The notes under the pieces: generated by a model
Seen by the model: only the letters and a program-made list of their open reading frames with translations
Told to the model about the DNA's origin: nothing
Databases searched by the model: none
Shown here: positions 1,164 to 54,869 of the stretch, in pieces
How positions within the stretch are numbered: the first letter of the stretch is position 1
Layout: the number at the start of each line of letters is the position of its first letter
DNA from: Escherichia phage V18
Reading direction: 5' to 3' (one strand)
DNA length: 64,000 bases
Sequence record: NC_041937.1
Program-made: the position numbers and the translations under genes

Positions 1164-2963
1164 TCACCTCTGTCTGTCCAGCCACCAGTTCTGTAGTGAC
1201 ACTGTAGTGTAGCACAGTTCATTGGGTCCCCCTACAGTCCTGGCACTGGTACCACCACAAGCTATCGGTAGTGGTTCCCATTTGGCTTTCCGGTTGTTAT
1301 AAACACCCCATTCCAAACTGCCGTTACCGGATTCGTCCATCCCGCCATCCCAGATGACCATCTTGGCGGCTTTCTTAGATCCCCAGAAACCTCTTTCTGC
1401 TCCTGAACTGCGGATCCATTCTCCAAGTCCCCAGTTTGCCAGCTGACCGTTCAGATCACCAACCTGCATATATTTAGGACAATCTAAGACCCCATCCTCA
1501 CGGAAGCCTAAATATCTATGAGTTTCAGATCCTTTTGCGCCTTTGTGCAGGTGGATTGTCAACCAAGCCTTATTGTCGTTTCTTACCTCAGAGTAGATCC
1601 TATACCCATGCTCAAGGACACCGTCAGCGCTGTATTTGTCCCCGTTAACAATACCTGATGCTGACTTAACATCAGCAGAACTTTGAGACAGGTAAAGGTG
1701 CCCAAAGGTAGGGGAGTTTCTAGACCCGAGACCGATGTGTGCTCTAAAGGTATCATCGTTACGAGGTCTGACCATCGGCTGCCATGCAGTCCACTGATTT
1801 GTGTTGGCCTGGTAGGTTCTCAAATACCAAACATCTACGTTAGAGAATGGATAGTATTCCTGACGACAACCTGTACCGCCGTTAGCATTGTTCTGCCAAA
1901 CAATCAAGTGACCAGCACCAGAACCTGCAGGGTAACCATTTGCCTCAGTTGCATAGGCAGTCATCGGCTGGTAGTACACACCATCCTGATTACCAGTTAA
2001 GTTATTGATATTGAAATTTGGCTCAAGGGCTGCACGTTGCTTATAGAAAGCCCCCAAGTTAATGCGTGAACCTGCGGCATCCCTGGCACCTGTGCCGCCT
2101 TGCTCTATAGCAAGAGGTTGCCACGAAGCTGTTTGTTGGTTCCACATACCCCAACGGCCTGTTGCATCAAGCTGCAAGTACCCTGCTGTGTTTAAATCAT
2201 CTCCAGCACGGATAACTGTTCTTGTTGGGTTGTTTGCCTCTAGGCGTTTAAATTCATCACGAAGTGCTATTCTTTTTGTTGTTGCTACACCGTTGGTTAC
2301 TGCAATGGTATACATGGCTCCGGTGGTAGCGCCACGGAAAATACCATCAACAGTTGTAGTATCACGACGAGATACCACACCATTCAGAAATTTTTCACCA
2401 GCTGCTACAGAAGGGTAGTTGGTAGTTCTTCCCTCTTCAATAACTGCAGGGCCAACAAAGTTATCAAGGTGAATAACATCGCCTACAGTGTGCACTGTAC
2501 CAAAATCTACACGCTGTGCAAGGGCTTTAGCATCGTTAGCTGTCTGAACAGTAACATCCATTACATCCTGGACAGACTGCCCTTCGGCTGTCATAATCAT
2601 AGATGCGCCAATGGTAGATTCCAGCTCCTCCCTTAAGGACGGATCTGTATATACCATCCATGCAGCGTCAGTAATCCCACCATCGGAGTACGGTGAAGAT
2701 AGTGCAGGGACAGTGTGTGGAAATTCGCCTTTCCAACGCAGGTAGAGGTCTTCCTCTTCGAAGTAGGCAAAATCCATTGGGCCGTTTAACTTACCACCTT
2801 CCTTAAAGGAGATTACATGAGAAACAGTCCCATCCACATGGACAACATCGCCAATTTTTACACGACGAGTCAGGTCTGGTTGTTGAACAACCAGGTAATC
2901 ATCCTCTGTCACTGCGGTAGTGGCAGGAAGAGATTCAATTCTGACAACTTTAATATCAGCCAT
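1164..2963 (-). CDS. tail fibre protein
   Basis: 599 aa; N-terminus DDYLVVQQPDLTRRVKIGDVV shared with ORF 5598-6266; GGTGA(R) ... NLG fibre motifs (QGGTGARDAAGSRINLGA, ACGGTSAR). Confidence 0.7.
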   Translation of the reverse strand: MADIKVVRIESLPATTAVTEDDYLVVQQPDLTRRVKIGDVVHVDGTVSHVISFKEGGKLNGPMDFAYFEEEDLYLRWKGEFPHTVPALSSPYSDGGITDAAWMVYTDPSLREELESTIGASMIMTAEGQSVQDVMDVTVQTANDAKALAQRVDFGTVHTVGDVIHLDNFVGPAVIEEGRTTNYPSVAAGEKFLNGVVSRRDTTTVDGIFRGATTGAMYTIAVTNGVATTKRIALRDEFKRLEANNPTRTVIRAGDDLNTAGYLQLDATGRWGMWNQQTASWQPLAIEQGGTGARDAAGSRINLGAFYKQRAALEPNFNINNLTGNQDGVYYQPMTAYATEANGYPAGSGAGHLIVWQNNANGGTGCRQEYYPFSNVDVWYLRTYQANTNQWTAWQPMVRPRNDDTFRAHIGLGSRNSPTFGHLYLSQSSADVKSASGIVNGDKYSADGVLEHGYRIYSEVRNDNKAWLTIHLHKGAKGSETHRYLGFREDGVLDCPKYMQVGDLNGQLANWGLGEWIRSSGAERGFWGSKKAAKMVIWDGGMDESGNGSLEWGVYNNRKAKWEPLPIACGGTSARTVGGPNELCYTTVSLQNWWLDRQR

Positions 2964-2998
2964 TCTTTCTCCTGAAAGGGGGCAAACAGCCCCCTATG

Positions 2999-5596
2999 TT
3001 AAAGGTACAATCCACGGTATTGAGCATAAAGGCCTAGACCGCGAAGGATTTCGCCAGAGTGATAGCCAACCGGGTCAGAAACTGCCCAGCAGCCGTTTAA
3101 AATATTATCCCCATTAATGAAGTGGTGCTTTTGCAGTAGCTTCACACAGGCTTCCACAACAATATCTATTTGAGGTATTGTCTCTGAATACCCGCAAAGA
3201 CCTAGCCAGCAGCAACCTGCAAGCCATTCACCTACCACCCACATCCTGTCTCCTCTGTCCTGATAAGAATATCCCCCAGAGGTGTTAAAGTCTGTAGGCA
3301 GATTTCCTGAATGAGATGACTGGAATCTGTTGAGGAACCATGCCCATTTCTGGCAGAACAGGAATAGTCTTTCATCAACAGGTTCTTTATGTTTCTTGAG
3401 CTCATATATTGTGCGGCACGCAGCAACAAAAGATCTTGACTGGAGCTTAGAGTTATCTACCATCTCCCACCAACCAGTCAACCCTTCATTACCTCTTTGC
3501 CATACATAACGTGAGGCAACTGGACCCTCTGTCTTAAATGTATTATTATACCAGACTTGAGCGTCATACAGAAAGCCTATTGTATTTGACAATCTATGGC
3601 GATCTATGTTTTCTGCACCCATGCAGTAGACTGCTGGGTATTGCATGCCAGGGTAGGGCCAATTTGGCTTTTCCTCTAAGAGATAGTTTTCCTTATCTAT
3701 CATCTTTCCGGCAGGGAACACACCCGGTGTGTGCCTGTATGCACCTTGCTTGTAGTTTCTGACATAGCAATCTCCAACCTTAGCGGTTGATTCTGTCTTG
3801 CTTGCCATCCATACACTAAACCAGATTAGATAAGCATCCCTATCTGCAATATAGAATTGCGGCAGCGTGTTGACGCAATATAGATCAAACAAGCCATTAC
3901 CTATCTGCCTGTCGCTTAGGCTGAAATCTACAGAGGTGAGCCCCTTAGGATTAGCAAAGAAAGGTTTAATCTCTTCTTCGGTGTGGTGAGGTTGTGTCGG
4001 ATCTAGTTTGAAATCTCCTAGAGTAAGAGTTTCTGTTATCCATTGTCCATTAGTGGCATATAGATCAGCATACCATAACCACCTGTCTTTGTCAAGAAAT
4101 TTGACCCTTACCATCTCATCATCTGATCGATAAGTTACTGAGTTTAAAGAAACCTCTCTTCCAAAATTGAAAGTTACTTTACCTCTTGCTATATTACAAC
4201 GGGTGAAGTTGTCAGAGTGGTTGTAAATGTCGGTATCATACTGCATACTGACACTAGCGCCACCGCTCACGGCAATGTTTTCCTCTTTAGGTAAGAGATA
4301 CGGATTACCGTCTTTACCAACCACCTCTACAAAATCAGTAACCTTGGCAACTGTTTCTGTTACCTCTGCCCCTCCAAAAGGGACACCTATTCTGTACTGT
4401 TTTTTGTTATTGTTACCATCATTAAGGATGAAATGTGGTTGGAACAGAACCCCTTCTCCTCCGAAATTCATAACAATTTCAGCATCTCTGCCTATTTTGT
4501 ATGTAGTCCCTTTTTGGATTATTTCGCAAGGCTGGCGTGCGTTCATTCTAAAATTGATATATCCGTCACTATCCCTACTCATGACAGGTACTGTTCCTGC
4601 AACTAGACAAGTGCCATCTGTGAACGGGGCCTTAATCAACGTGGTCTTTCTGAACAGCTTGTCGTAGGCATTTATATCACTAAAATTAAGCAACTTATTG
4701 TAAGACTGCTTAAACGCGGTGTAATACTTTTCCTCACCTGTCAAGGTATAGAGTTGATAGCAAGCGTCACACCACATCTCTTCCCCGTCTAACTCTGTGG
4801 CTTGATTGTCTGCAACCACATTTATAGGATTTACAATTACAGGGGATCCAGCAGGTATCACCGATCCACCCTGCTCTTGTGGCAATCTCACACAGTAGGT
4901 CACCTTGTGGCTGCCTGTAACACCCTTATCCTGCAGTTGGATTGTGCCGAACTCTGCAGACGTATGACCACTATCGGCTATGCTACCGTTGGCCCAATAG
5001 CGGTTACCATCCCATGCTATATACCACTCAACCCACCAACTTAACCCGGATGTTGTCCAATCTGGGTTAGCATCTGTGCCACCGTAAACATCAGAGTCTA
5101 CAGTGTTTCTTCCTAATACACCGTTATATGCTTGAAATGCCTTGTCCAGGTATTCCCCCCATGTCGGAGATCCAGCTGGGATTTTTCCTCTACCATTGGT
5201 AAAAGATACCACCACATCTTTAAACCCACCATGTGATGGAACCCCATCTGTGGATAGAGGGTAGTGGGACAATCTTTGCATTTTACTTTCTACTGCATAT
5301 GCACCCAAAAGATGACTATTGTAAGCTTCCCAAGCATCTTTTGCCCTATCCAAGTAGAAATCGCTTTTCGATGCCCTGTATGCTTCAATGTACCCCAGAA
5401 TCAACACAGCTTGGGACTCATGCATTGCCCAATCATTATTTATCTTATTACCTGCCCACCCTGCAGCTATAAGACCATCAGGGTTTACTAGCTTATTTTG
5501 TGTGGGAGTGTTGGTAATACCTGTGTTGTTATCGAGGCACTTCCTGTGCCCCTCAATCATCTGAAATACGTTATCAATGTTGTGTTGAATACGCAT
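2999..5596 (-). CDS. putative tailspike / receptor-binding protein with possible polysaccharide-degrading domain
   Basis: 865 aa immediately downstream of a fibre-anchor ORF (stop and start 1 nt apart); N- and C-terminal regions look like alpha/alpha-barrel glycosidase folds; function unverified. Confidence 0.45.
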   Translation of the reverse strand: MRIQHNIDNVFQMIEGHRKCLDNNTGITNTPTQNKLVNPDGLIAAGWAGNKINNDWAMHESQAVLILGYIEAYRASKSDFYLDRAKDAWEAYNSHLLGAYAVESKMQRLSHYPLSTDGVPSHGGFKDVVVSFTNGRGKIPAGSPTWGEYLDKAFQAYNGVLGRNTVDSDVYGGTDANPDWTTSGLSWWVEWYIAWDGNRYWANGSIADSGHTSAEFGTIQLQDKGVTGSHKVTYCVRLPQEQGGSVIPAGSPVIVNPINVVADNQATELDGEEMWCDACYQLYTLTGEEKYYTAFKQSYNKLLNFSDINAYDKLFRKTTLIKAPFTDGTCLVAGTVPVMSRDSDGYINFRMNARQPCEIIQKGTTYKIGRDAEIVMNFGGEGVLFQPHFILNDGNNNKKQYRIGVPFGGAEVTETVAKVTDFVEVVGKDGNPYLLPKEENIAVSGGASVSMQYDTDIYNHSDNFTRCNIARGKVTFNFGREVSLNSVTYRSDDEMVRVKFLDKDRWLWYADLYATNGQWITETLTLGDFKLDPTQPHHTEEEIKPFFANPKGLTSVDFSLSDRQIGNGLFDLYCVNTLPQFYIADRDAYLIWFSVWMASKTESTAKVGDCYVRNYKQGAYRHTPGVFPAGKMIDKENYLLEEKPNWPYPGMQYPAVYCMGAENIDRHRLSNTIGFLYDAQVWYNNTFKTEGPVASRYVWQRGNEGLTGWWEMVDNSKLQSRSFVAACRTIYELKKHKEPVDERLFLFCQKWAWFLNRFQSSHSGNLPTDFNTSGGYSYQDRGDRMWVVGEWLAGCCWLGLCGYSETIPQIDIVVEACVKLLQKHHFINGDNILNGCWAVSDPVGYHSGEILRGLGLYAQYRGLYL

Positions 5597-11559: not shown

Positions 11560-12395
11560 GCATCGCCTAGTGTAAGCGTTTGGCTGGTGGCACTTTTAAA
11601 TCCAGACTGCAGTGCTGACAGGTGGGCGTTAAAGGTTGACTTTTTCATCTCCCCGCGAGCAAACCTGGACTCTAACTCTGAGTATCCTGGCAAGCTTCCA
11701 CGGAATCCGGCCCCATACTTGGCAGAAAGTCTTATCGCGGAGTTGTAGAGGTGGGTTCTTCTTGCCTCACGATCCGACATAAGCCTATTATCCATACCAG
11801 CTTTACCGTCCCTTCTTAGCTGTCTATGATAACGATTCATAGCAGCTGTCTGAGCTTTTACAAGATTAGGGTCGGAAGCCACACCACCCATATTAGGGTT
11901 ACCGGGGATATATTTGAAAGCTTTGGCATTAGCCAGAACTCTTGCCTTAGGTGCCTTATAACCGCCGTAAGACACTGGTGCAGATTTGGCAGCCTTTTTG
12001 GCCTCTTTAGCTTGCTGCTGGTAGAACTTACGCATCCTAGCCATTTCTGGATTTTTAGCGGTAAGATTACCTACAGCTTGTTTACGTCTCGCATTCTCCC
12101 TACGTTCTATTGCAGCCCTTACTGCAGCCTCTTTCTTGGCCTGTGCTACGCTCTCCCTGTGCAGCTTAGCATTTGCCTGAGATTGCTGTCTGGCAACCCG
12201 CTGCATTGTCTGCTGGGTTTTAACAGCTACCGCCTGCCATCTACTCATGGGGTTGGCTGAGTTAAAATCCTCACCTAGTTTCCTGAACTCCCTCCCAATA
12301 CTGCGAATTTTCTCTACAGCTTTTTTGTAGGAGGAGTTCTCTATCTCAAAGCCAATCTTGTTGACTGTTGTGGCAACTATTTTGTTTGTAGCCAT
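11556..12395 (-). CDS. tape-measure-associated basic coiled-coil protein (possibly N-terminal part of the tape measure)
   Basis: 279 aa Lys/Arg/Ala-rich helical protein; its stop overlaps the next start (ATGA). Confidence 0.5.
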   Translation of the reverse strand: MATNKIVATTVNKIGFEIENSSYKKAVEKIRSIGREFRKLGEDFNSANPMSRWQAVAVKTQQTMQRVARQQSQANAKLHRESVAQAKKEAAVRAAIERRENARRKQAVGNLTAKNPEMARMRKFYQQQAKEAKKAAKSAPVSYGGYKAPKARVLANAKAFKYIPGNPNMGGVASDPNLVKAQTAAMNRYHRQLRRDGKAGMDNRLMSDREARRTHLYNSAIRLSAKYGAGFRGSLPGYSELESRFARGEMKKSTFNAHLSALQSGFKSATSQTLTLGDA

Positions 12396-12405
12396 GGTTT
12401 CCTCA

Positions 12406-12444
12406 TAATAAAAAGGGCCAGATCCCAGAAAAGGAATCCGGCCC
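12406..12444 (-). terminator. rho-independent terminator candidate
   Basis: GC-rich imperfect hairpin (GGGCC...GGCCC) followed by TTTTTATT on minus strand. Confidence 0.4.
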
Positions 12445-12449
12445 TTAGA

Positions 12450-12698
12450 TTATCCTCTCCTGCGCTTAGCTTTCGCAGCAGCTGCGGCAGCCTTCTGCTC
12501 CCGCTCCATTTCCCTGTTTTGGACGGTATCTAGGAATTCTTCGATATCAAGATACTCACAGAGCTTCAGGAAATACGCCATATCTGCAAGATTTAGCGAT
12601 TCAAAATTTTCCCCTTTGAAATTCTTGAGCACCCTGCACCAAAGAAAGTCGAACCAGTTGAGTGAACTGTTCTTGGCTGCCCACTCACTGGCCCTCAC
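12450..12698 (-). CDS. putative tail assembly chaperone (T-like ORF)
   Basis: 82 aa ORF with GTG start, in -1 frame relative to upstream 157 aa ORF, between tube and tape measure genes. Confidence 0.4.
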   Translation of the reverse strand: MRASEWAAKNSSLNWFDFLWCRVLKNFKGENFESLNLADMAYFLKLCEYLDIEEFLDTVQNREMEREQKAAAAAAKAKRRRG

Positions 12699-12709
12699 AA
12701 CAACCTTAC

Positions 12710-13183
12710 TTATTCCTGCTCTTCCGGAGTCTGATCCAGGTTGTTCACCTGCTGAATCATACCCATCTGCTGTAACATCTCCAGAAGGCTTCCTAAACCG
12801 TCTTGTGTGAAAAAACAGCCGTAGTTAACCTCCAGAACCTTACCTGCCAGCTTAATCATCTCCAGCAGATGCCCTGCAAACACAACATCTGGGTTAAGCT
12901 TATCCACACCATCTACGGTAATATCTTCGAACAAGATTTTAAATAACTCTTCAATAGAGCTATCATCAAGTTCTTGGAACAGGTAAGCCAGAGCAGTAGG
13001 AAGGACCTCTGCCATATTCTGACCACCAGAGATAATAGATCCACCGATAGCACCTAGCGGGACAGCCACAATCTTACCGATTTTAGGCATGTTTTTCATT
13101 GCTTTCATCGGTCCCCAGTGGGTGATCACAAAGTTGTGCCCTGCTAAATCAATCTCTGTTGTAGGTCTAAAGTTTATAGCCAT
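12710..13183 (-). CDS. putative tail assembly chaperone (G-like)
   Basis: 157 aa acidic protein between tube and tape measure genes; preceded by sigma70-like promoter. Confidence 0.45.
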   Translation of the reverse strand: MAINFRPTTEIDLAGHNFVITHWGPMKAMKNMPKIGKIVAVPLGAIGGSIISGGQNMAEVLPTALAYLFQELDDSSIEELFKILFEDITVDGVDKLNPDVVFAGHLLEMIKLAGKVLEVNYGCFFTQDGLGSLLEMLQQMGMIQQVNNLDQTPEEQE

Positions 13184-13209
13184 TTTATAGCATCCTTATT
13201 AGTCATGTT

Positions 13210-13249
13210 GTGCACCATATTTGTGTATTTTACCATGATTATGGTGCAT
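13210..13249. repeat. inverted repeat bracketing promoter -10 region
   Basis: GTGCACCATA (13210-13219) and TATGGTGCAT (13240-13249), 9/10 complementary. Confidence 0.45.
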
Positions 13250-13255
13250 TGTCAA
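13227..13255 (-). promoter_or_regulatory. sigma70-like promoter for chaperone/tape-measure genes
   Basis: Minus strand TTGACA-N17-TAAAAT; flanked by inverted repeat GTGCACCATA / TATGGTGCA(T). Confidence 0.45.
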
Positions 13256-17461: not shown

Positions 17462-17914
17462 TTATGCCAGTGCAGCCTCAAAATCTTTCATCATATTTTG
17501 GAAAGTTTTTGCCTTACTTAAGGTAACACCGTACTCTTTGGCGAAGGTTTGGAGTGCATCTTTTGAACCACTTTTGTCATCTTCGTTGTTAAGAGCTGCT
17601 GCCTGCTGTAGTATGGCATCAACATCACTGCGAGAAGATCTTGATTCTTGTGCCTGTTCAGGATCCTGCTCAGTGCCTTCCTCAGGTACAGTCGGGCCTT
17701 GAGATTCTTCACCACCACCAGGTTCAGTAGGACCTACAGGCGGCTCCGGCTCTGGTTCAGGCGGTGGAGCTACCGTAGAGGTCAGTCCAAGATTCACAAC
17801 CTGAGAACGTTTCTTAGGCCACTCAATGGTGAAAGTTTGGGTATCTTCTTCATAAACAATGCTGCATTGCTCATCGTTTATGGTCACTTTTTTAGGCATC
17901 CCTACAGGTCCCAT
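17462..17914 (-). CDS. hypothetical structural protein with Pro/Glu-rich linker
   Basis: 150 aa; PPPEPEPEPPVGPTEPGGGEE linker; followed by hairpin plus T-run. Confidence 0.4.
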   Translation of the reverse strand: MGPVGMPKKVTINDEQCSIVYEEDTQTFTIEWPKKRSQVVNLGLTSTVAPPPEPEPEPPVGPTEPGGGEESQGPTVPEEGTEQDPEQAQESRSSRSDVDAILQQAAALNNEDDKSGSKDALQTFAKEYGVTLSKAKTFQNMMKDFEAALA

Positions 17915-18306
17915 AGATGGCCCTCTGCCACGGAAACTTGGAAAGCAGCGTCTACCTCTTTAAACACTGACGGGGTGAGTGTAATATTGACATCCCCGCT
18001 TTGCAGTGTTAAAGTGCTTTCATCAAGGTTCTCTGTGAAGAACAGAAGAATAACACCCATACGGATAGTTGAAATACCAGTATCAATTGGCAGGCCTGTA
18101 TGTTTTGCAATCTTCTCGAAGAAGTCTACAATCGTTCTGCATGGATAGTGAACACTGCCAATAACGAACTCTGTTGGTGGCAGCAAGGCTGATAAACCGA
18201 CATTGATTTCTGGATTATATTGTGCTAAAAATTGATAAAAACTTAACTGATTGTTGAAAACTCTTAATAGAGGATCATACTCAACTGGGTAGACGGTTCG
18301 CTTCAC
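17902..18306 (-). CDS. hypothetical head protein
   Basis: 134 aa ORF downstream of capsid gene terminator. Confidence 0.4.
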   Translation of the reverse strand: MKRTVYPVEYDPLLRVFNNQLSFYQFLAQYNPEINVGLSALLPPTEFVIGSVHYPCRTIVDFFEKIAKHTGLPIDTGISTIRMGVILLFFTENLDESTLTLQSGDVNITLTPSVFKEVDAAFQVSVAEGHLWDL

Positions 18307-18387: not shown

Positions 18388-19212
18388 TTATTCACCACCT
18401 TTCAGAGTTGCTTTAACAACCAGCTCTGGACGGGTGTTAACTGCCAGCATGGAAGTTTCAGATTCAATCTTCTCTTCACGCAGGTATGCAGAGTGTTTAT
18501 ACCACATGTACAGTTCCTGTGCTGGAGTGTTTGCTTCGTTAACATCGTCTGCCGGAGCAAAGTGCAGCTGGAACATCTGATCAATACCCATCGGCAGAAT
18601 GCGAGCTTCTTTCTTAGGAATATTGCCAGAGATATCTTCGATAAAGGTGATACCTTTATGCTCAAACACACGGTATACGCTGTCTTGACCGCCAGCACCC
18701 AGACGGCGACGCAGAGGTTCCTGAGCAGAGCCGTAATAGGTGTATGCCAGTTCTACCAGAGGGTCATACTGACAGGTTGTGTCACCAGGTGCATAGGATT
18801 TACCCAGAATAGCCTGGAACAGCGCTTTCTCACGCAGTGCTTCATGAGAAACACGGATACGGCGAACAACGCGGGTTACTACGTCCTGAACAGTTTTCGG
18901 AGCATCAGGTGTGAAGTAACGACGGAAGTTCTGAACATCTGCTGCGGTGATGCCTTTGTCCAGAGGGAAGAACGGGATGTTCAGGTTTTTAACCTGAGCA
19001 CGTTCACTACCAACGTAGTTACGCTCACCACCACGACGGCGTGCCGGAATGTCGGTTACAACTTCATCAACACGCTCAATCTGAGCAATTGTTGAGGTGC
19101 CGAGACGGGTTTCGAACAGATCCATACCAGTAATCAGGCGGAATTGACGCGGAACAAGGTCCAGAGTAGCACCTAAATCAACAATGCCAAATTCATCTTT
19201 ACGAGTAATCAT
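18388..19212 (-). CDS. putative major capsid protein
   Basis: 274 aa; strongly biased GC-rich codon usage unlike neighbours (high expression); downstream of portal and head ORFs; perfect 10 bp GC hairpin terminator follows. Confidence 0.55.
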   Translation of the reverse strand: MITRKDEFGIVDLGATLDLVPRQFRLITGMDLFETRLGTSTIAQIERVDEVVTDIPARRRGGERNYVGSERAQVKNLNIPFFPLDKGITAADVQNFRRYFTPDAPKTVQDVVTRVVRRIRVSHEALREKALFQAILGKSYAPGDTTCQYDPLVELAYTYYGSAQEPLRRRLGAGGQDSVYRVFEHKGITFIEDISGNIPKKEARILPMGIDQMFQLHFAPADDVNEANTPAQELYMWYKHSAYLREEKIESETSMLAVNTRPELVVKATLKGGE

Positions 19213-19296
19213 TTATTTCTCCAAAGTAAAATTGTAGCCAGCATCGCTAGAATCAACTTTGCCGAGCACGATATCAGAATATTGAGCGGTAATCAT
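19213..19296 (-). CDS. small upstream ORF (27 aa) preceding capsid gene
   Basis: MITAQYSDIVLGKVDSSDAGYNFTLEK; shares GAAATAAATGATTAC initiation region with the capsid gene; may be leader peptide or non-functional. Confidence 0.25.
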   Translation of the reverse strand: MITAQYSDIVLGKVDSSDAGYNFTLEK

Positions 19297-19380
19297 TTAT
19301 TTCCCCCGTTAAACTCTTATGCTTCAGCAGATCCAGATACTCTTTAGTTTTGGTTGCGTCCCTTGATCAGGTTCCCTTCT

Positions 19381-19728
19381 TTATCGAAGAGATCCCAGCC
19401 TACCAATACAAGACTCTGCGTCAGCTTGCGCCCATTCCCAATCAGGATGCTCTTTAGCCCAAGCCTCCTCTTCAATCTCAAAACCAAGCATGTGTGCAAG
19501 TGCTTTAGCATCATCATACCACATATCGAAGAAACGACGCAAGTATTCTTCAAAACTAAGCTCCACAGTAACTTGGCGAAGTGCCTTAACAATATCGTCT
19601 GTTAACTGCTCAGGCTTAAGATCACTCTTCATCAAAAGAGATACAGGTCTGTTGTTAGCGCTATAGCCTTGCGCCTTATGGCACAGGGCAATCCCCTTCT
19701 CTTTAATAGTAATCGTTTTTTCAGACAT
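19381..19728 (-). CDS. hypothetical head protein
   Basis: 115 aa acidic ORF between portal and capsid genes. Confidence 0.4.
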   Translation of the reverse strand: MSEKTITIKEKGIALCHKAQGYSANNRPVSLLMKSDLKPEQLTDDIVKALRQVTVELSFEEYLRRFFDMWYDDAKALAHMLGFEIEEEAWAKEHPDWEWAQADAESCIGRLGSLR

Positions 19729-20148
19729 TATTCATTGCCCTCTTCTACAACACTGATCCCGAAGTTTACGTTGGTAATTTCACCAGTTTCTTCATCAACA
19801 TTACCTGTTGCCTGAATGCTTAGGCCACCAACAATGCCAGCCTTCTTAGCTTCCCATAATTCAGGATTATTGTATTTAACTTTAGCAACCCAAGAGCCAG
19901 CCTTGATGACCTGCTCAGTGCCAATTACTACAACATCAAACTCTTCTTGAATCCACGTCTTTTCAATAGTGAAAGCATCTGTAGAGGTCAAGTGAAAAAG
20001 GTTTTCAGAAACTAGGCCTGCGGCGTATGCTGCGTCCCAATTATCTTTAGCCTTTTTGATGGTGTCTTTACTCATCCACTCACCGTGAGCATCTTTAGTG
20101 TCAGGTTCGTAGATGATTTCGTAGGAAATCATTTCTTCCTGTGGCATC
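19728..20148 (-). CDS. hypothetical head protein (scaffold or protease-like position)
   Basis: ORF 19728-20303 overlaps portal 3' end; start placed at ATG 20148 (MPQEEMISYE) with GAGGA RBS. Confidence 0.4.
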
Positions 20149-20214: not shown

Positions 20215-21771
20215 TTAATTTTCCATGTTGGATATGGAATTATCTCTGGTTGATGACATCTTAGAAGTGCCGTTGCCAGTGGATCCTGCAGCCATTCCAT
20301 CACCAGCCCTACTAATGTCCTGGCCCAAGAGCTTCATCAGCTCTTCCTGATCCATGTCCTCGTCAAATCTTTCATCAAACCCGCCTACTTCAAGAATCTT
20401 ATTAATTACTGCAGGAGTTTTTGGCAAGTAACCTACAGCACCGATCCTCTGGACAAACTTGGAGAAGCTCTCCATATCCACTTCTTCAATCAGACCAGGT
20501 TTCAGTTTAGGCATATCATCATCTTCAAGGATGATACCATTCAATGCCAGAAGCTGTGGAATAAGATCTTTATTGAAGGCCTCAGTGATAATATCTATAT
20601 CACGCTGAACAAAATGACCATGGATAGACTGTTTTGACTCAGACAGAGAGAAGGATCCAACGTTATCGTTACCGAGGTTAATAAAGCCAGCACCGAAACG
20701 GTCAAGGATCGCCTTCTTACGGGCATCAATCAAATCTTTAGTGGAATACTGCTTACCCATACCGTCAACCCCCTTCAGGGTCATGGAGTAAAGCTCTTTA
20801 CCAGACTTATCTCTATCAGACGGAAGTATAAAGAAACTTTGCTCACCACTATGGGCGTTTGCTGCGTCAAGCATAAGGTCTGCAACCATTCTCCCTTCCA
20901 TTGAATTCGGGTCAATGCTGGCCTTGTTCAAAATATTGGAAGGAATTTTCAGCTCAAGCACACCACCAAGGTCTTTAGAACAGCCAACAACCTCAAGGTT
21001 TTCAATCAGAACTTTCTCACGGAAAGATCTGTAGCAACCTATCATCGGTGACACACCTGCAGGGTTAGATTCTGTTCCTGACAGGGTCATGAGCATAAGC
21101 TTTTTAGCAGGGATGAAAATTTCAGGCTCATTAAAGCCTTTTGAAGGCATTGCAGCAAGAGGTCCAGCCCAGCGTGCATTTTGAGTGTTTAGAAATGCAT
21201 TAGGTGATTGATAAATACCTGTCAGTGTTCTGCTATTCTTGTCAAAGACAAACGGCTCTGATCTGGACAAACTGGCCTGAGGTCGGAATGCAATTTTATC
21301 AATAAGAAGCATCCCGGCATATTTACCTTCTTTCTCTCTGCGGTATACTTTCTCAAACAGTGAAAAACCATACTCGTTAAAGGTAGCTGCGCTTCTTGCA
21401 ATATCTCGAAGAGTTTGTTGGTTTGCCAAATTACGCAAAGAATACTCTATAAGCTCGGCAGCTTTCTTAGAGTCTTCACTTTTAACATTATAAAGGATCT
21501 TAAAATCATTGAATGCTTTCGTGATGAAAACATATTTTGTATCTAAGGCAGTAGCAACTGTGGAATCACATTTCATAGTCTCCACTGTAGCAATCAGCTG
21601 AGGCCAACGCAATTCCTCAACCATCATAGATTGCGATTCTGCCATAATTTGGGAAAGTGCGCCAGAACCGATCTCACTCATACGAACATTATGAGTTGGT
21701 GCGCCTGCGTTCCCAGATTTATTCACAGTTTTGGCTGTGGCGTTGTGTTTCCTGCGGTTCTTTTTGGACAC
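20215..21771 (-). CDS. portal protein
   Basis: 518 aa ORF immediately downstream of terminase; size, position and acidic C-terminus typical of portal proteins. Confidence 0.7.
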   Translation of the reverse strand: MSKKNRRKHNATAKTVNKSGNAGAPTHNVRMSEIGSGALSQIMAESQSMMVEELRWPQLIATVETMKCDSTVATALDTKYVFITKAFNDFKILYNVKSEDSKKAAELIEYSLRNLANQQTLRDIARSAATFNEYGFSLFEKVYRREKEGKYAGMLLIDKIAFRPQASLSRSEPFVFDKNSRTLTGIYQSPNAFLNTQNARWAGPLAAMPSKGFNEPEIFIPAKKLMLMTLSGTESNPAGVSPMIGCYRSFREKVLIENLEVVGCSKDLGGVLELKIPSNILNKASIDPNSMEGRMVADLMLDAANAHSGEQSFFILPSDRDKSGKELYSMTLKGVDGMGKQYSTKDLIDARKKAILDRFGAGFINLGNDNVGSFSLSESKQSIHGHFVQRDIDIITEAFNKDLIPQLLALNGIILEDDDMPKLKPGLIEEVDMESFSKFVQRIGAVGYLPKTPAVINKILEVGGFDERFDEDMDQEELMKLLGQDISRAGDGMAAGSTGNGTSKMSSTRDNSISNMEN

Positions 21772-21873: not shown

Positions 21874-23429
21874 TTAGATAAAACGCTTGAACATAGAAGG
21901 TGATGAGATTGATGGAATCACACAAGGAAGTGCTACCTCCTCTTTCTCCAGGAAATTAATCGCAGAAGCTACACAGTCGGCCCAGTCGTCTTTTCTGTTA
22001 AATGTTGATCTTTCCCCGTTGAATTTTTCAAGTTCAGTCAGAAATGCTTCCAGAGTATCAGGATGGAAACTGGATTTTACAATCCTCACCATTCCTTGTT
22101 GGGCAAGATTGGCAAAAGGTGAGAACCTTGTCAGTTTAGATTTGTTGGAAGGCATTGGGTCTTCTTCAACCCTAAACCCTTCGGCAAGCAAGGATCTGGA
22201 GGAGGTTAAGAACTCACTCTTACCTGCCTGACCGGGGTCCACAGAGAATACGATTATACAATCATCACCATCAAACTGCGCCTGTTTCCTGATGATCACA
22301 TCTCGTTCACCAGCCTTTTTACAGAACTTGCCTTCCAGACCTGTGGAATACCTCCCGTCATCCACGTTCTCAGGACAATAATCCCCGGACAGGTAATAAA
22401 AGCCGTCGCTATCTTTACTTACCTTGACACTGGCGGTAAAGTCAGGAAATTTATTACCGGAAGTTCTCTCGGTTCCTGCTTTATCCCATGCCCTGCAAGA
22501 CACTGATCCAAGGGGTACTCTATCGGCATCACGAAGGAAAGATCTTTGAAAATAGTTTGCACCCTCAGGCTTTGCAAACCAGTTACCATGGAGAAGCTGA
22601 GCTTTTTCAAGCTCGGGCAGACCTTCAAGGAAAGCAAGGTATTCTGGGTTGTCTCTTAAGCAGACAGGATTATCGAAGATTGTTGCGCCTATAAACGAGA
22701 ATGACAACGGTCTCGGCTTGATCTCTACACCCAGTCCGTTAACCGTGGTGTATTTCTCTATCAACTCTTCTTTAGAGTCTCCCCAGATAAATTCACCGTC
22801 GCGTCGGATAAAATATCTTTTCTTACCGCATTTCTCCGGATCTGGATACCCTTCATCGTCCAACCACCACCTAACCAGTTTGGCAAGCATGTGTTCTGAA
22901 TCGGGGTTACAGCTGATAACCATTCTTGATGGATACTTTGACTGAGATCTCAGACGAGACATCAGATAGTCTATCTGCTCCCATTCGAACTGCGTGCCTC
23001 ATCGAAGCAAACCAAGCAAACCATGGTATACTCAAGCCCTTGATGGTTAAGCTTATCTTGTACATACTCCATGTGGCAGTATTTTACAACAGCTCCCTTT
23101 TTGCTTCTATCCCACTTGCCAGTGTTCGGATCAAACCGTGGAAAAATGAACTTATGATCCTTCTCTCTGAACTTTGGCTTAATGTTTTCAGGCAGATCAC
23201 TATAAATAGCTACTGCTTTAGGCCATAGTCCACCCTCACCTTCCAACTGTGGGGTTGTTCTTCGGAACATAACCACAGAGCTGTGGGGGTCATCAATAAT
23301 TTTAAGTGGCATCAATTGCAAGAGGAACGACTTGCCAGACCCTGCGGCACCGCCGATTACCAAAATATCTGCATCGTTTTCGAGGATCATCTTCTGCTTT
23401 TCAGAACACGGTCCGTAAATCTTAGACAT
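21874..23429 (-). CDS. terminase large subunit, split into two frames (ATPase ORF 22971-23429, nuclease ORF 21874-22962)
   Basis: Walker A GGAAGSGKS and Walker B CLVCFDEA in N-terminal ORF; other frame continues ...EWEQIDYLMSRLRSQSKYPSRMVISCNPD after a single frame change. Confidence 0.75.
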
Positions 23430-50983: not shown

Positions 50984-51021
50984 AAGTACTTGGCACATCT
51001 CAATCTGAAAGGAGTCCCAAC

Positions 51022-51809
51022 ATGGGTCGAGCTAAAGAAACAAAACGCATGCGTGATGAAGCTAGAGAGGCTCGCAAATCTGATCGCCTGCGTAAGGCTG
51101 CTGAGAAATTTGCTGACGAACGAGAGCACACTGCTCCAGCTCTCCGACCAATGAATAAGAAGCAGCAAAAGTATCTTGATTACCTAGGGTCGCGTAAAAT
51201 TATCATTGTAAACGGAGTGTTTGGGTCTGGTAAAACATTCATGGCATCTGCTATGCAGGTGACCTTCTGCGTAAGAATGAAATTGATAAGATCATTGTTG
51301 CACGTCCTTACGTTCAGACAGGAAAGACTTCAGGATTTAAACCTGGAAATGCAATGCAGAAACTGTGGCCCTATCTTCGAAGCATGATGGACACGATTTG
51401 TCGTCGTGTTGGCAAAGGTGCTTTTGCCGCAATGCTGGGAGACGGTCAGAACAGCCGTATCGAGATTTGTGAAGTTGAAAGCATTCGTGGTCGTAGTTTC
51501 GATGAGCGATGCTTTGTCCTGATTGACGAGGCACAGCAAACTAACCCTGAAGAAATGTTGTCAATTATCACAAGGATCTCTGATCAAGCCACCCTTGTAA
51601 TTATGGGTGATAATAGCCAACGTGACATCCCTGGTAAATCTGGCCTTGCATGGGTGACGGATTTCTTTACTCGTCATCCAGATCCTGAGGTTGGAATGAT
51701 CAGCTTTGATAGTCCAGACGATGTCGTTCGTTCTGGGTTGGGTCGTCAGATCGCACTCAATCTTATTGAGGATCGTGCAAATCATATTTGGACCCCTGTT
51801 TCCGAGTAA
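51022..51809 (+). CDS. phoH: PhoH-like ATPase, frame change near 51250
   Basis: Walker A GVFGSGKTFMA in first ORF; second frame gives KIIVARPYVQTGKTSGFKPGN ... FVLIDEAQ. Confidence 0.65.
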
Positions 51810-51853
51810 TACAGAAGGGTGGTTATTCCACCCTTAAATATCTAAAACAGTTG

Positions 51854-51882
51854 TTGACAAATAGGTAAGCTTTAGATATTAT
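51854..51882 (+). promoter_or_regulatory. sigma70-like promoter
   Basis: TGTTGACA-N17-TATTAT upstream of ORF 51911. Confidence 0.5.
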
Positions 51883-51910
51883 TATCGGACAAAACAGAGA
51901 GAAGGACAGT

Positions 51911-52222
51911 ATGGCTACAATACAAGAGAAACTGAATAAAATATACTGCCTGTTTGTCTATAACGGCGAGACAATTTTGGCAAATAAAGGATCCAAGAAT
52001 GTGTGGACCAAGGACAGCGGTGGTAATATAATTAACTTAGCGTTGCTACGTGAGCGCCGACACAGATTCTTTATCGAGTCTCGAATTATTGAAAGCAGCA
52101 CTTGCTACAGAACAGGCGATAAAGTAATTGTTGACAATGATACGTGGTATGTGGTAGACTGGCAATCATTGAGTTGTGATGCTTCTGACAATCGTAAGTA
52201 TTCCATAGTGATTGCTAAATAA
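51911..52222 (+). CDS. hypothetical protein
   Basis: 103 aa ORF downstream of promoter 51854-51882. Confidence 0.4.
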   Translation: MATIQEKLNKIYCLFVYNGETILANKGSKNVWTKDSGGNIINLALLRERRHRFFIESRIIESSTCYRTGDKVIVDNDTWYVVDWQSLSCDASDNRKYSIVIAK

Positions 52223-52282
52223 AGGTAAATGTGAATCAGGTTTAAATAAATAGCTTTCAACTTCCAATATTAAGGATTTCTC

Positions 52283-53329
52283 ATGAATTTAACACCTCGC
52301 AGCACCATGGTACACGGCATGAAAGAAAAACAGAACGGTTTCGAACCTATGAGTAATAAAATGTTTGGTATGCCGGGTGGTATCATGGAAACATACAGCT
52401 ACCCAACACCTGTTGTTGACCACGTTCTTTATATCGACGATTTGGAAGACCTGCAGGATCATATGTCTCGTCTGCAGACGATCCGTATGGCTCAGCCGGA
52501 AGAAAGCATTCGGGTGATCATCAATAGCCCTGGGGGTTGCGTGCACATTGCAATGGCTTATCTACAGGCATTCCGCGAGTCTCAGGCAAGCGTTGTTGCA
52601 CATGCTGAAGGGATGTGCTGCTCTGCGGGAACAATCTTATGGCTGGGTTGTAAAGAACGCACTGTGGCTCCGGACACAGAATTTATGTTCCACTACTATC
52701 AAGGTGGCACTTATGGTAATGGTGTGAACATGAATACTCAGGTCAGCTACTGGAAAAAACGTTTTGAACGCCTGATCGAAAAATACTACGGTGGGGTGCT
52801 GACAGAAGATGAGATCGCATCCATCACAGCTGGTGGTGAAGTGTGGTTGGACGGAGAGGAGCTGGCAGCTCGAACTGGAGCCATCATTCTGGATGAAGGC
52901 AACATACAACGCATCCAGAATGGACAAAAACCTAAAAAGCTTCTGGCAAAAGGTGATGAAGGCGTGTTAGGTGAAGCAGGTCTTCCGGAGATTCACCAGT
53001 GCACCTCTTTAGATGAGCTAGTTCATGCTGTTGAATCTGCGAAAGCGGTTGGTTCGAAAGGTGATGTTCACACTGTGTTCCTGAATCTGCAGATGGAAAG
53101 TGGTGAGACCATTAAGATTGCCTTAGGTGAGATTACCTCAGAAGATCTGCAGCGATTCTCTGTCGTTGAACTTCAAGACATTCTGTCCCAATTGAAGACA
53201 ACCCTGAACGGCGGTGAAGAGGTTAAGGTAAAAGATAAGACTCGCAAGCGTCTGGTGGACAATATTATTAAAACAGCAAAAGAACTCAATGAAAAAATCC
53301 TGGGTGCAGGAATTGTCGAAGAAGCTTAA
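52283..53329 (+). CDS. ClpP-like (S14 family) serine protease with long acidic C-terminal extension
   Basis: RVIINSPGG, catalytic-Ser context GMCCSAGT, His context FMFHYYQGG; about 150 aa helical acidic tail; terminator hairpin follows. Confidence 0.65.
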   Translation: MNLTPRSTMVHGMKEKQNGFEPMSNKMFGMPGGIMETYSYPTPVVDHVLYIDDLEDLQDHMSRLQTIRMAQPEESIRVIINSPGGCVHIAMAYLQAFRESQASVVAHAEGMCCSAGTILWLGCKERTVAPDTEFMFHYYQGGTYGNGVNMNTQVSYWKKRFERLIEKYYGGVLTEDEIASITAGGEVWLDGEELAARTGAIILDEGNIQRIQNGQKPKKLLAKGDEGVLGEAGLPEIHQCTSLDELVHAVESAKAVGSKGDVHTVFLNLQMESGETIKIALGEITSEDLQRFSVVELQDILSQLKTTLNGGEEVKVKDKTRKRLVDNIIKTAKELNEKILGAGIVEEA

Positions 53330-53342
53330 ACATTAATTCTAA

Positions 53343-53365
53343 AGCCCTCTTCGGAGGGCTTTTAT
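53343..53365 (+). terminator. rho-independent terminator after ClpP-like gene
   Basis: AGCCCTC-TTCG-GAGGGCT hairpin followed by TTTT. Confidence 0.55.
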
Positions 53366-53380
53366 GATCTGGAGATTTGC

Positions 53381-53914
53381 ATGACTTGTGCTAGAAAACC
53401 TGATGAACAACGTAACGCCTACGATGAGTATGTGACACCGGAGTGGTGTGCAGAAGGGCTGTATGACCTTATTCCGTTCCCAGAAGACTGGACCTACTTA
53501 GAGCCTTGCAGGAATAGTGCCTCAGGTGTGTTCTACTCCCGTATGCCGTTAGGATCTGCATGGGGAGAAATCCAAGAAGGTGTTGACTATCTGAATACAG
53601 AATACAACCATGTTGACTGTATTATCACCAACCCACCATACAGTTTGGCTCGTGAGTTTGTAGACAAGGCGTTGAAAGATGCTGACGTAGTTATTATGCT
53701 TTTGCGTCTTAATTTTCTGGAAAGCAAAGCCAGATTTGAATGGTGGCTTGATAATGCACCTACCACTGTGATCACAATATCTAAGCGTCCATCTTTTCAA
53801 TCAAATGGCAGAACTGACGGGCAAGCATATGCATATTTTGTGTGGGATAAGAAAAACCGTTTAGGCTTGCCGCCATTTATGTGGTTGGCACCACCAGAGG
53901 TAGACCTGAAATGA
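53381..53914 (+). CDS. N6-adenine DNA methyltransferase
   Basis: IITNPPY (motif IV) and YVTPEW; 177 aa. Confidence 0.6.
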   Translation: MTCARKPDEQRNAYDEYVTPEWCAEGLYDLIPFPEDWTYLEPCRNSASGVFYSRMPLGSAWGEIQEGVDYLNTEYNHVDCIITNPPYSLAREFVDKALKDADVVIMLLRLNFLESKARFEWWLDNAPTTVITISKRPSFQSNGRTDGQAYAYFVWDKKNRLGLPPFMWLAPPEVDLK

Positions 53915-54195
53915 AGATGAGTGCTAAGGACAAATTACACCAGTTAGCGCTAAAACGTCCTGTAACGCTCCCTGACGAGCTTAACTCCATTTATGATGCG
54001 ATTGTAGGGGAGATACAAAATAAAGCGTTAGCAGGCTTTCTGGGATGCGGATTTTCGATAAATCTACCCTCGCATCTCTCAGATTACTTCCCGCACATTG
54101 TTGGAGATTTGAGAGCAGGAGGTCTGCAGGTAGATGTTGTTGGCATCTCCCCAGAGAAAAATAACACGGTTGCCTACTTGACAGTAACCTGGTAG
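53881..54195 (+). CDS. hypothetical protein
   Basis: 104 aa ORF overlapping methyltransferase 3' end. Confidence 0.35.
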   Translation: MVGTTRGRPEMKMSAKDKLHQLALKRPVTLPDELNSIYDAIVGEIQNKALAGFLGCGFSINLPSHLSDYFPHIVGDLRAGGLQVDVVGISPEKNNTVAYLTVTW

Positions 54196-54471
54196 TTGTG
54201 TATTGTTGTTCTCAACAAGGGGGAGTCATTTATGTACAAGTCATTTTCAATTTACTCAAGACAGGGGAAACACTACACAGAGATCCTGATCACTCAGAAA
54301 AAATCTGTAGAAGGTGAGTGGGAATATCACCATAAAATGTTGCGTCCAGATTGGGTTTTTGATAGACTTATTGCCATGATCCCTCTTGGAGAAGTATATC
54401 CTCTGACAGGCGGGAGGGATGTTTGGGATTTAATTGCTTACATAGATTCATTTAAGGAGCCCAGTGTATGA
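54196..54471 (+). CDS. hypothetical protein
   Basis: 91 aa ORF. Confidence 0.35.
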   Translation: MCIVVLNKGESFMYKSFSIYSRQGKHYTEILITQKKSVEGEWEYHHKMLRPDWVFDRLIAMIPLGEVYPLTGGRDVWDLIAYIDSFKEPSV

Positions 54472-54869
54472 AGATTGAGATCACCAAAGAAGGCAAGAAA
54501 GTGTCTGGCGACTATGCAACAGTAATTCGGGATTTAATGTTTGAAGCCACCAAGATCGGTACATCTAAAGTTGGTCAAACTGTTAGTGTGCAAAGTAATA
54601 TCGCCACAGGAGAGAAGGTATTCATTGTGGTCAAAGGGCAGGATCCTGTGGAAGGAACAGTGGGCCGAGGAGGTTACCTGTGCATTTCTGAAGAGCCTCG
54701 TATGCTAGTGGCTGACTCCGCTACTATAGGTGGGAAACGTGTGTGCGAGGCGGATGAGGTAATGATTATCCAGCCTGTTGACCCAGATGATCCAGCAACT
54801 TGGGTGGTAGGAAATGAAATCTTCTCTTTAGAAGAGTTATCCTTCCCAGCCCCGCGCTCTGTTCAGTAA
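54468..54869 (+). CDS. hypothetical protein
   Basis: 133 aa ORF, start overlaps upstream stop. Confidence 0.4.
   Translation: MKIEITKEGKKVSGDYATVIRDLMFEATKIGTSKVGQTVSVQSNIATGEKVFIVVKGQDPVEGTVGRGGYLCISEEPRMLVADSATIGGKRVCEADEVMIIQPVDPDDPATWVVGNEIFSLEELSFPAPRSVQ

Follow-up and report, generated by a model that had tools for sequence, protein, structure and literature searches.

The gene of Escherichia phage V18 analyzed here has been known as an annotation, that of a ClpP protease subunit, since 2013. Its counterpart in phage rV5 is gp122, a protein of 349 aa listed as 'ClpP (ATP-dependent) protease subunit' (Table S3, Kropinski et al. 2013, PMC3606486). Table S4 of that study gives P121, a promoter of the sigma-70 type with nearly the same sequence as the one we found in V18, and the terminator t122 at -14.9 kcal/mol (PMC3606486). 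The predicted late promoters of rV5, of the TGGTAAAATA type, occur on the minus strand only and ahead of structural genes; P064 precedes the portal gene and t060 follows the capsid gene (PMC3606486). A more distant relative is Gp211 of phage ICP1 (326 aa), annotated as 'ClpP ATP-dependent protease subunit'. A subset of the ICP1 genes in the range gp176-gp211 peaks at 12 min, with gp211 at the end of that range, and the capsid protease of ICP1 is a separate protein, gp125, encoded in the capsid operon. In cellular ClpP (MEROPS S14; E. coli, PDB 1TYF/6WR2), the residues that form the docking pocket for ClpX, ClpA and ADEP have been described (bioRxiv 10.1101/2023.03.01.530711), and Y60 is reported to be conserved in all ClpP sequences (PMC6889138). 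ClpP-related enzymes also serve as head proteases, as in Gordonia phage Petra (gp4) and Vibrio phage K255 (CAL9954888), and C-terminal extensions are frequent among them. We searched the literature for a functional study of phage ClpP-like proteins (rV5, Vequintavirinae, ICP1 gp211, CRISPRi-ART) and found none.

We analyzed a stretch of 64,000 nucleotides of V18 (NC_041937.1), referred to here as the window, and collected the features of the locus in Table 1. The ORF is preceded by the Shine-Dalgarno sequence AAGGA, 8 nt 5' of the ATG. When the region 51000-54500 was searched, matches came from 121 phage records; in 113 of these the match spanned at least 80% of the region, with an identity of 90-99%. 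Nearly all of the 121 records came from Escherichia phages assigned to Vequintavirus, a genus of rV5-like myoviruses; JeffSchatz, HdK5 and rV5_ev146 are examples. The encoded protein was 100% identical to HdK5_00193, 'putative ATP-dependent Clp protease proteolytic subunit', and the other Vequintavirus orthologs among the matches listed were 96-99% identical. JeffSchatz bas55_0174, from the BASEL phages, is labelled 'ClpP-like protease'. These two genes and rV5 gp122 are the same gene as that of V18, with the same neighbours, promoter and terminator; apart from the one additional residue of gp122, nothing of substance separates them. The gene thus belongs to the conserved core of rV5-like phages, where it is already annotated, and matters little for the window as such. 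We think it likely that its product is a conserved non-structural ClpP-fold serine peptidase of the rV5 gp122 type in the Vequintavirinae, with an early-type promoter, distinct from the XkdF-type prohead protease of the same phage and probably independent of Clp ATPases.

Table 1. Features of the ClpP-like locus and of the head protease gene in the window, with the evidence for each
Feature	Position	Strand	Evidence or remark
Sigma-70 consensus-type promoter, TTGACA-17-TATTAT, 11/12	51854..51882	+	promoter scan; counterpart of rV5 P121
Upstream co-transcribed gene, 103 aa, rV5 gp121 homolog	51911..52222	+	PHROG 5456 (unknown function), E 2e-39
ClpP-like serine protease CDS, 348 aa + stop	52283..53329	+	ATG start; counterpart of rV5 gp122; intact
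ClpP-fold peptidase domain, residues 45-215, including handle-like helix 150-169	52415..52927	+	AF2, Foldseek, Pfam
Ser114 codon, predicted nucleophile	52622..52624	+	aligns with E. coli ClpP Ser97; invariant in 22 homologs
His137 codon, predicted general base	52691..52693	+	aligns with ClpP His122; invariant in 22 homologs
Glu186 codon	52838..52840	+	aligns with ClpP Asp171 (HMMER alignment to 9ndj_P; further alignments)
Variable-length linker, residues 216-240, predicted disordered	52928..53002	+	pLDDT <50 at 223-235; gappy alignment
C-terminal alpha/beta domain, residues 241-341, protein-family-specific	53003..53305	+	
Intrinsic terminator, GCCCTC-TTCG-GAGGGC-TTTTAT	53344..53365	+	sequence; counterpart of rV5 t122
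XkdF-type (Peptidase_S78_2, PF14550) prohead protease gene, 139 aa	19728..20147	-	between portal and scaffold-like genes

The original prediction had assigned the protein to the S14 (ClpP-fold) proteases with a Ser-His active site on the strength of three motifs, and this assignment was supported throughout. All three motifs were found in the 348-aa ORF: INSPGG at residues 80-85, GMCCSAGT at 110-117, which contains Ser114, and FHYYQGG at 136-142, which contains His137. Pfam CLP_protease (PF00574) matched residues 59-168 with 47.7 bits (E 2.1e-12; gathering cut-off 20.2). PHROG 5410, 'ATP-dependent protease', matched residues 24-344 over profile positions 4-322 of 323 with an E-value of 2.3e-153, and PHROG 1827 matched with 2.6e-40. 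A sequence search of the PDB returned 84 ClpP sequences at E<0.01. The AF2 monomer model, for which 22 homologs were used as input, had a mean pLDDT of 77; values were mostly 84-94 over residues 51-210 and fell to 66 at 141-150. When this model was compared with the PDB by Foldseek, the top matches were all ClpP (more than 1000 chains, probability 1.0), with target-normalised TM values to ClpP chains of 0.65-0.74. With the Pfam, PHROG 5410, PDB and Foldseek matches, the similarity to the ClpP family is far above chance. The V18 protein shares with cellular ClpP the fold, the positions of Ser and His, and an N-terminal loop and handle of similar length; it differs in its overall sequence (~20% identity), in the loss of the docking pocket, in the residue at Asp171, and in a 130-aa C-terminal extension that cellular ClpP lacks.

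We examined the conservation of the predicted catalytic residues among the 22 homologs, whose identity ranged down to 36%. Ser114, His137 and the motifs surrounding them were invariant, and the alignment indicated that Ser and His are also kept in the versions from ICP1, the T4-like vibriophage nt-1, Pakpunavirus and a T5-like phage. At the position of ClpP Asp171, the V18 protein has Glu and most other Vequintavirinae homologs have Gln; ICP1, nt-1 and the T5-like phage have Asp there, and the ClpP-related head proteases have Glu. A first MAFFT alignment, which showed Ala at this position, had misplaced the ClpP C-terminus and was replaced by HMMER and truncated-tail alignments. The Gln in most close homologs would fit a catalytically dead or regulatory protein of the ClpR kind that acts by binding, for example as an adaptor or by poisoning host ClpP rings, and the extra domain could mediate such binding. 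The invariance of Ser114 and His137 across the family and its distant relatives, together with the Glu that V18 itself carries at the acid position, makes this reading highly improbable as compared with an active peptidase.

The extension beyond the protease domain had been described in the original prediction as about 150 aa of acidic helical sequence resembling a scaffold. The acidity was confirmed only in a mild form, as residues 200-348 had a pI of 5.2, a D+E content of 17% and a net charge of -6, and the tail was no more acidic than the protease domain, with its net charge of -11. The helical part of the description did not hold, since AF2 predicted a disordered linker and an alpha/beta domain (a helix and a beta-hairpin, then three helices) in place of one long helix. 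The case for a scaffold-like tail in this protein is thus weak. Unlike the mildly acidic tail of V18, those of ICP1 gp211 and of the nt-1 homolog are strongly acidic. A profile search with the C-terminal domain against 1.84 billion representatives returned family members only, in addition to two repeat proteins that we judged spurious.

More than 100 GenBank records carry an ATP-dependent Clp protease subunit label, which agrees with a reading of the protein as a true ClpP paralog, one that would provide a proteolytic core for host ClpX or ClpA or mix with host ClpP and so redirect ATP-dependent proteolysis. The ClpP fold and the Pfam CLP_protease score above the gathering cut-off are in line with it, as are the N-terminal stretch ahead of the first strand and the handle, both of which had ClpP-like lengths in the alignment. 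The docking surface, on the other hand, argues against this reading. Alignments with ClpP indicated that Y60 is replaced by R77, Y62 by I79, F82 by E99, I90 by H107, M92 by E109 and L114 by A129, and that the V18 protein has a 5-residue deletion where ClpP has L48, F49 and A52. R77, E99, H107 and E109 were invariant within the protein family in the 22-homolog alignment. The hydrophobic IGF/LGF-loop pocket of ClpP is therefore not retained in the V18 protein. The profile scores also count against a ClpP paralog: the NCBIfam ClpP equivalog TIGR00493 gave 33.2 bits against a cut-off of 308.6, and other ClpP models gave 21-39 bits against cut-offs of 228-361, so that only the broad PF00574 was passed. 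Models of the SppA/S49, NfeD and SDH types likewise stayed below threshold (NfeD1b_N, 18.8 against 40 bits; SDH_protease, 15.8 against 31.3; Clp_like_SDH, 24 against 250). Furthermore, the annotations show no gene for an AAA+ unfoldase in the vicinity. The PhoH-like ATPase encoded upstream was considered as the ATPase of the protease and rejected: it is not a Clp-type unfoldase, and the proximity of the two genes recurs in ICP1 but not in Pakpunavirus, nt-1 or the T5-like phage. Taken together, we consider it doubtful that the protein is a ClpP paralog working with the host ATPases.

The same comparison suggests which ClpP properties the V18 peptidase may have kept. The protein probably assembles ClpP-like rings, given that its N-terminal loop and handle have kept their length. 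Canonical docking to host ClpX or ClpA through the IGF-loop pocket is probably absent, as judged from the charged or polar residues that now occupy the pocket. With the ClpX/ClpA pocket residues replaced, the 'ATP-dependent' part of the label is doubtful and, as far as the sequence goes, unsupported; the database label 'ATP-dependent Clp protease proteolytic subunit' probably claims too much, given that the docking pocket is not conserved. If there is no docking to ClpX or ClpA, the enzyme would need no Clp ATPase for its work, like the ClpP-related head proteases of phages.

To place the V18 protein among its relatives, we looked at where homologs are encoded in other phages. A homolog with 63% identity (P0004) had full-length relatives in 186 phage records at E<=1e-40, from phages of Escherichia, Klebsiella, Salmonella, Cronobacter, Erwinia and other hosts. 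By tblastn the protease domain was found in 944 phage records, and in every case inspected it lay outside the head module. ICP1 Gp211 resembles the V18 protein in having a ClpP-like domain with the Ser and His motifs, a linker (acidic in ICP1) and an extra C-terminal part, and its gene is also in a non-structural region, three genes after the PhoH gene (PhoH-x-x-ClpP). The two differ in that the ~36% identity between them is confined to the protease domain and in the third triad residue, which is Asp in ICP1. The nt-1 homolog is encoded between frd and uvsX, that of a T5-like Klebsiella phage adjoins a dNMP kinase gene, and the Pakpunavirus homolog is found next to tRNA genes in a region that looks early.

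For the non-structural peptidase that we favour, we propose that the protein would appear in the early or middle phase of infection and would have its targets, host or phage proteins, in the cytoplasm, with the C-terminal domain probably supplying recognition of a substrate or partner. A bolder version, which we put forward as speculation with little expectation that all of it is right, is that the gp122-type proteins and their relatives in ICP1, T4-like vibriophages, Pakpunavirus and T5-like phages form a distinct class of unfoldase-free, self-compartmentalising ClpP-fold enzymes made early or in mid infection, in which a lineage-specific C-terminal domain, with a possible SAP/HeH-like helix-extended-helix motif, recruits host targets such as defence or nucleoid-associated proteins. 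If this were true, the gp122-type protein would be a protease of host takeover or counter-defence, and neither a ClpXP core nor a capsid protease. As a widespread non-structural ClpP-fold family of virulent phages, these proteins are a reasonable target for deletion and substrate trapping.

We then examined the transcription unit. The ClpP-like gene is the second in a two-gene unit with a host-type promoter, of the sigma-70 consensus type, and a terminator of its own (Table 1); the unit lies in the genome arm that carries the genes of nucleotide metabolism and replication. The upstream gene is hypothetical in JeffSchatz and HdK5, and a Pfam search with it gave no match. The terminator had been part of the original prediction and was confirmed by its annotation in HdK5 (-15.1 kcal/mol) and by rV5 t122; a simple terminator scanner gave no call at 53344-53365, and the hairpin was read from the sequence. 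A copy of the rV5 late motif with one mismatch, TGGTAATATA, was present at 52021-52030, within the upstream gene. From the promoter type and the analogy with ICP1, we infer that the ClpP-like gene is expressed early or in the middle of infection.

The position of the gene had also been described correctly. In the window, the left arm (~1-28 kb) is leftward and carries the structural genes, the right arm is rightward, and the GC skew flips at ~28-30 kb. The portal gene (20215-21771) and the capsid gene (18388-19212) are both on the minus strand; the ClpP-like gene, on the plus strand, is ~30.5 kb away from the former and ~33 kb from the latter. Its neighbours encode NrdAB, NrdDG, thymidylate synthase, a PhoH-like ATPase (two genes upstream) and a DNA methyltransferase. 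The order NrdD-NrdG-...-PhoH-x-ClpP-like-methyltransferase is common to the window, JeffSchatz, HdK5 and the Certrevirus phiTE. We also noted that the PhoH-like gene of V18 carries a 1-nt frameshift.

The original prediction had left two readings for this position: a head protease encoded unusually far from the head module, in the form of a protease-scaffold fusion, or a non-structural protease. In the first, the protein would be a displaced or second prohead (capsid maturation) protease whose C-terminal extension targets procapsids as in such fusions. The closest curated models are indeed those of ClpP-related head maturation proteases. NCBIfam NF045542 ('head maturation protease, ClpP-related') gave 60.4 bits and NF045540 gave 52 bits; together with PHROG 1684 (E 7e-22), NF045542 outscored the cellular ClpP models (~39 bits). 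The cut-off of NF045542 is 120 bits, however, so that the match is far under the curated level, and the head-protease PHROGs 1684, 94, 2976 and 133, with E-values of 1e-14 to 1e-22, were far weaker than PHROG 5410. As the NCBIfam models place the protein in neither the ClpP nor the head-protease family, we filed it under the phage-specific family PHROG 5410/1827 only. Petra gp4 and the K255 enzyme share with the V18 protein the Ser and His, a Glu at the third triad position and the loss of the ClpX pocket. In V18 the protease is followed by a linker and a further C-terminal part, an arrangement similar to that of the fusions, and the tails of the nt-1 and ICP1 homologs are highly acidic; the V18 tail itself, in contrast, is a small, mildly acidic globular domain. 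The genomic setting differs as well. The Petra and K255 genes lie between the portal and the scaffold or capsid genes, whereas the V18 gene is separated from the head module by 30 kb, is on the opposite strand, and has a sigma-70-type promoter, its own terminator and nucleotide-metabolism genes as neighbours, in a phage that has another head protease. Moreover, members of the same family occur in T4-like, T5-like and ICP1 phages that have head proteases of their own.

The other head protease of V18 is encoded by the 139-aa ORF at 19728-20147. This ORF matched Pfam Peptidase_S78_2, 'putative phage serine protease XkdF', with 65 bits (E 6.8e-18; cut-off 24) as well as PHROG 1530 and PHROG 3017 ('head maturation protease'), and it is unrelated to the ClpP-like protein in fold and sequence. 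A PDB search for its sequence relatives returned none. We noted that RefSeq (APECc02) and PHROG 1530 label this gene 'DNA methyltransferase'. In relatives, the minus-strand order is portal, the 139-aa ORF, a 326-aa acidic protein, decoration protein and major capsid protein, which puts the XkdF-type protease in the canonical slot. Its orthologs in W70 (Septuagintavirus; PMC11370258) and CB7 (Certrevirus; PMC7344957) are described as capsid maturation or prohead proteases and were detected by MS in purified virions. The ClpP-like protein, on the other hand, was not among the 28 virion proteins of W70 (PMC11370258). All four Septuagintavirus phages encode the ClpP-like gene. When the rV5 MS file was queried with five strings from the ClpP-like protein, four of them peptide sequences, none was present. 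A prohead protease will often degrade itself and be lost from the particle, so that the lack of the ClpP-like protein in mature virions counts for little and is compatible with a head role; a virion-associated canonical protease in the right slot is the stronger evidence. The original prediction had named two observations that would speak against a head protease, a different prohead protease in the head module (for example ORF 19728-20148) and absence of the ClpP-like protein from procapsids, and it is the first of these that we found. With a protease gene already present beside the portal gene in the head operon, the ClpP-like protein is very probably not the head-maturation protease, and a displaced or second prohead protease appears quite unlikely. 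The evidence favours the non-structural reading, and with the XkdF-type protease recognised in the head operon, the apparent puzzle of a head protease encoded so far from the head module disappears. Separately, a comparison with all public relatives showed damage in the head genes of V18: 62 codons of the capsid gene are absent, with the frame kept, hardly anything is left of the decoration gene, and the scaffold-like gene encodes 115 aa instead of 326 aa.

Comparison of the head genes of the window with those of APECc02 and of all other public relatives identified several internal deletions at 18388-19728. The major capsid gene had lost 62 codons in frame and encodes 274 aa vs 336 aa in APECc02 and the public relatives, while nothing beyond the first codons was left of the decoration gene (130 aa in relatives). 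The acidic 'head stabilization' or scaffold-like gene was reduced from 326 aa to 115 aa through several deletions. A 281-nt stretch of these genes corresponded to ~1200 bp in 5 pieces in every public record, and the deletions are therefore common to no public record. The damaged head genes look like an assembly artefact or the product of a defective genome.

Coordinates of the features discussed (APECc02 is a relative of V18; its positions are those of the stretch compared)
Feature	Window	APECc02	Strand in window	Remarks
Counterpart of APECc02 gp208	17462-17914 and 17902-18306		-	two overlapping ORFs
Head genes with internal deletions	18388-19728		-	compared with APECc02 and every other public relative
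Acidic protein (326 aa, APECc02 gp211)	19381-19728 (remnant)	11855-12832		scaffold position, PHROG 2970
XkdF-type (Peptidase_S78_2) prohead protease gene	19728-20147	12832-13251	-	
Large terminase	21874-22962 and 22971-23429		-	two nearly abutting ORFs
PhoH-like ATPase gene	51022-51387 and 51354-51809		+	two overlapping ORFs

The full-length acidic protein has a pI of 4.7. Its ortholog in the related Septuagintavirus phage W70, W70_135 (40 kDa), was represented by 913 spectra and was among the most abundant virion proteins (PMC11370258). The protein thus seems to remain part of the mature head, unlike a classical scaffold, which is removed. For the adjacent XkdF-type prohead protease gene, both RefSeq APECc02 and PHROG 1530 give the label 'DNA methyltransferase'. 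The PHROG 1530 profile has 379 positions, and its match to the protease was limited to positions 241-373. This label is probably a mis-annotation propagated from fusion proteins.

Three further genes were found in two parts. In APECc02, the large terminase is divided by an insert of ~900 bp carrying an endonuclease VII/HNH gene; the window does not have this insert, and the terminase reading frame is nevertheless interrupted. APECc02 gp208 is an 846-bp hypothetical gene with the capsid gene on one side and the neck genes on the other, and the two-ORF state of its counterpart (window 17462-18306) suggests another frameshift. The PhoH-like gene spans 788 nt in the window as compared to the intact 789-nt gene in the Vequintavirus relatives JeffSchatz, HdK5 and rV5, which points to a frameshift or the loss of 1 nt.

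Both in Vibrio phage ICP1 (positions 1714-4412 of the stretch compared) and in the Vequintavirinae (window 51022-53329), the ClpP-like gene is preceded by a PhoH-family gene, with one or two small genes in between. Among the gene neighbourhoods compared, no PhoH gene was found near the ClpP-like gene in Pakpunavirus, nt-1 or T5-like phages. The proximity of the two genes may stem from a common origin of ICP1 and the rV5-like phages and not from a functional link.

About 18 records named 'Campylobacter phage' (MG0656xx; C12, C14, C5, D1 and others) shared 97-99% identity with this region of the E. coli Vequintavirus, which suggests that they are mislabelled or contaminant assemblies.
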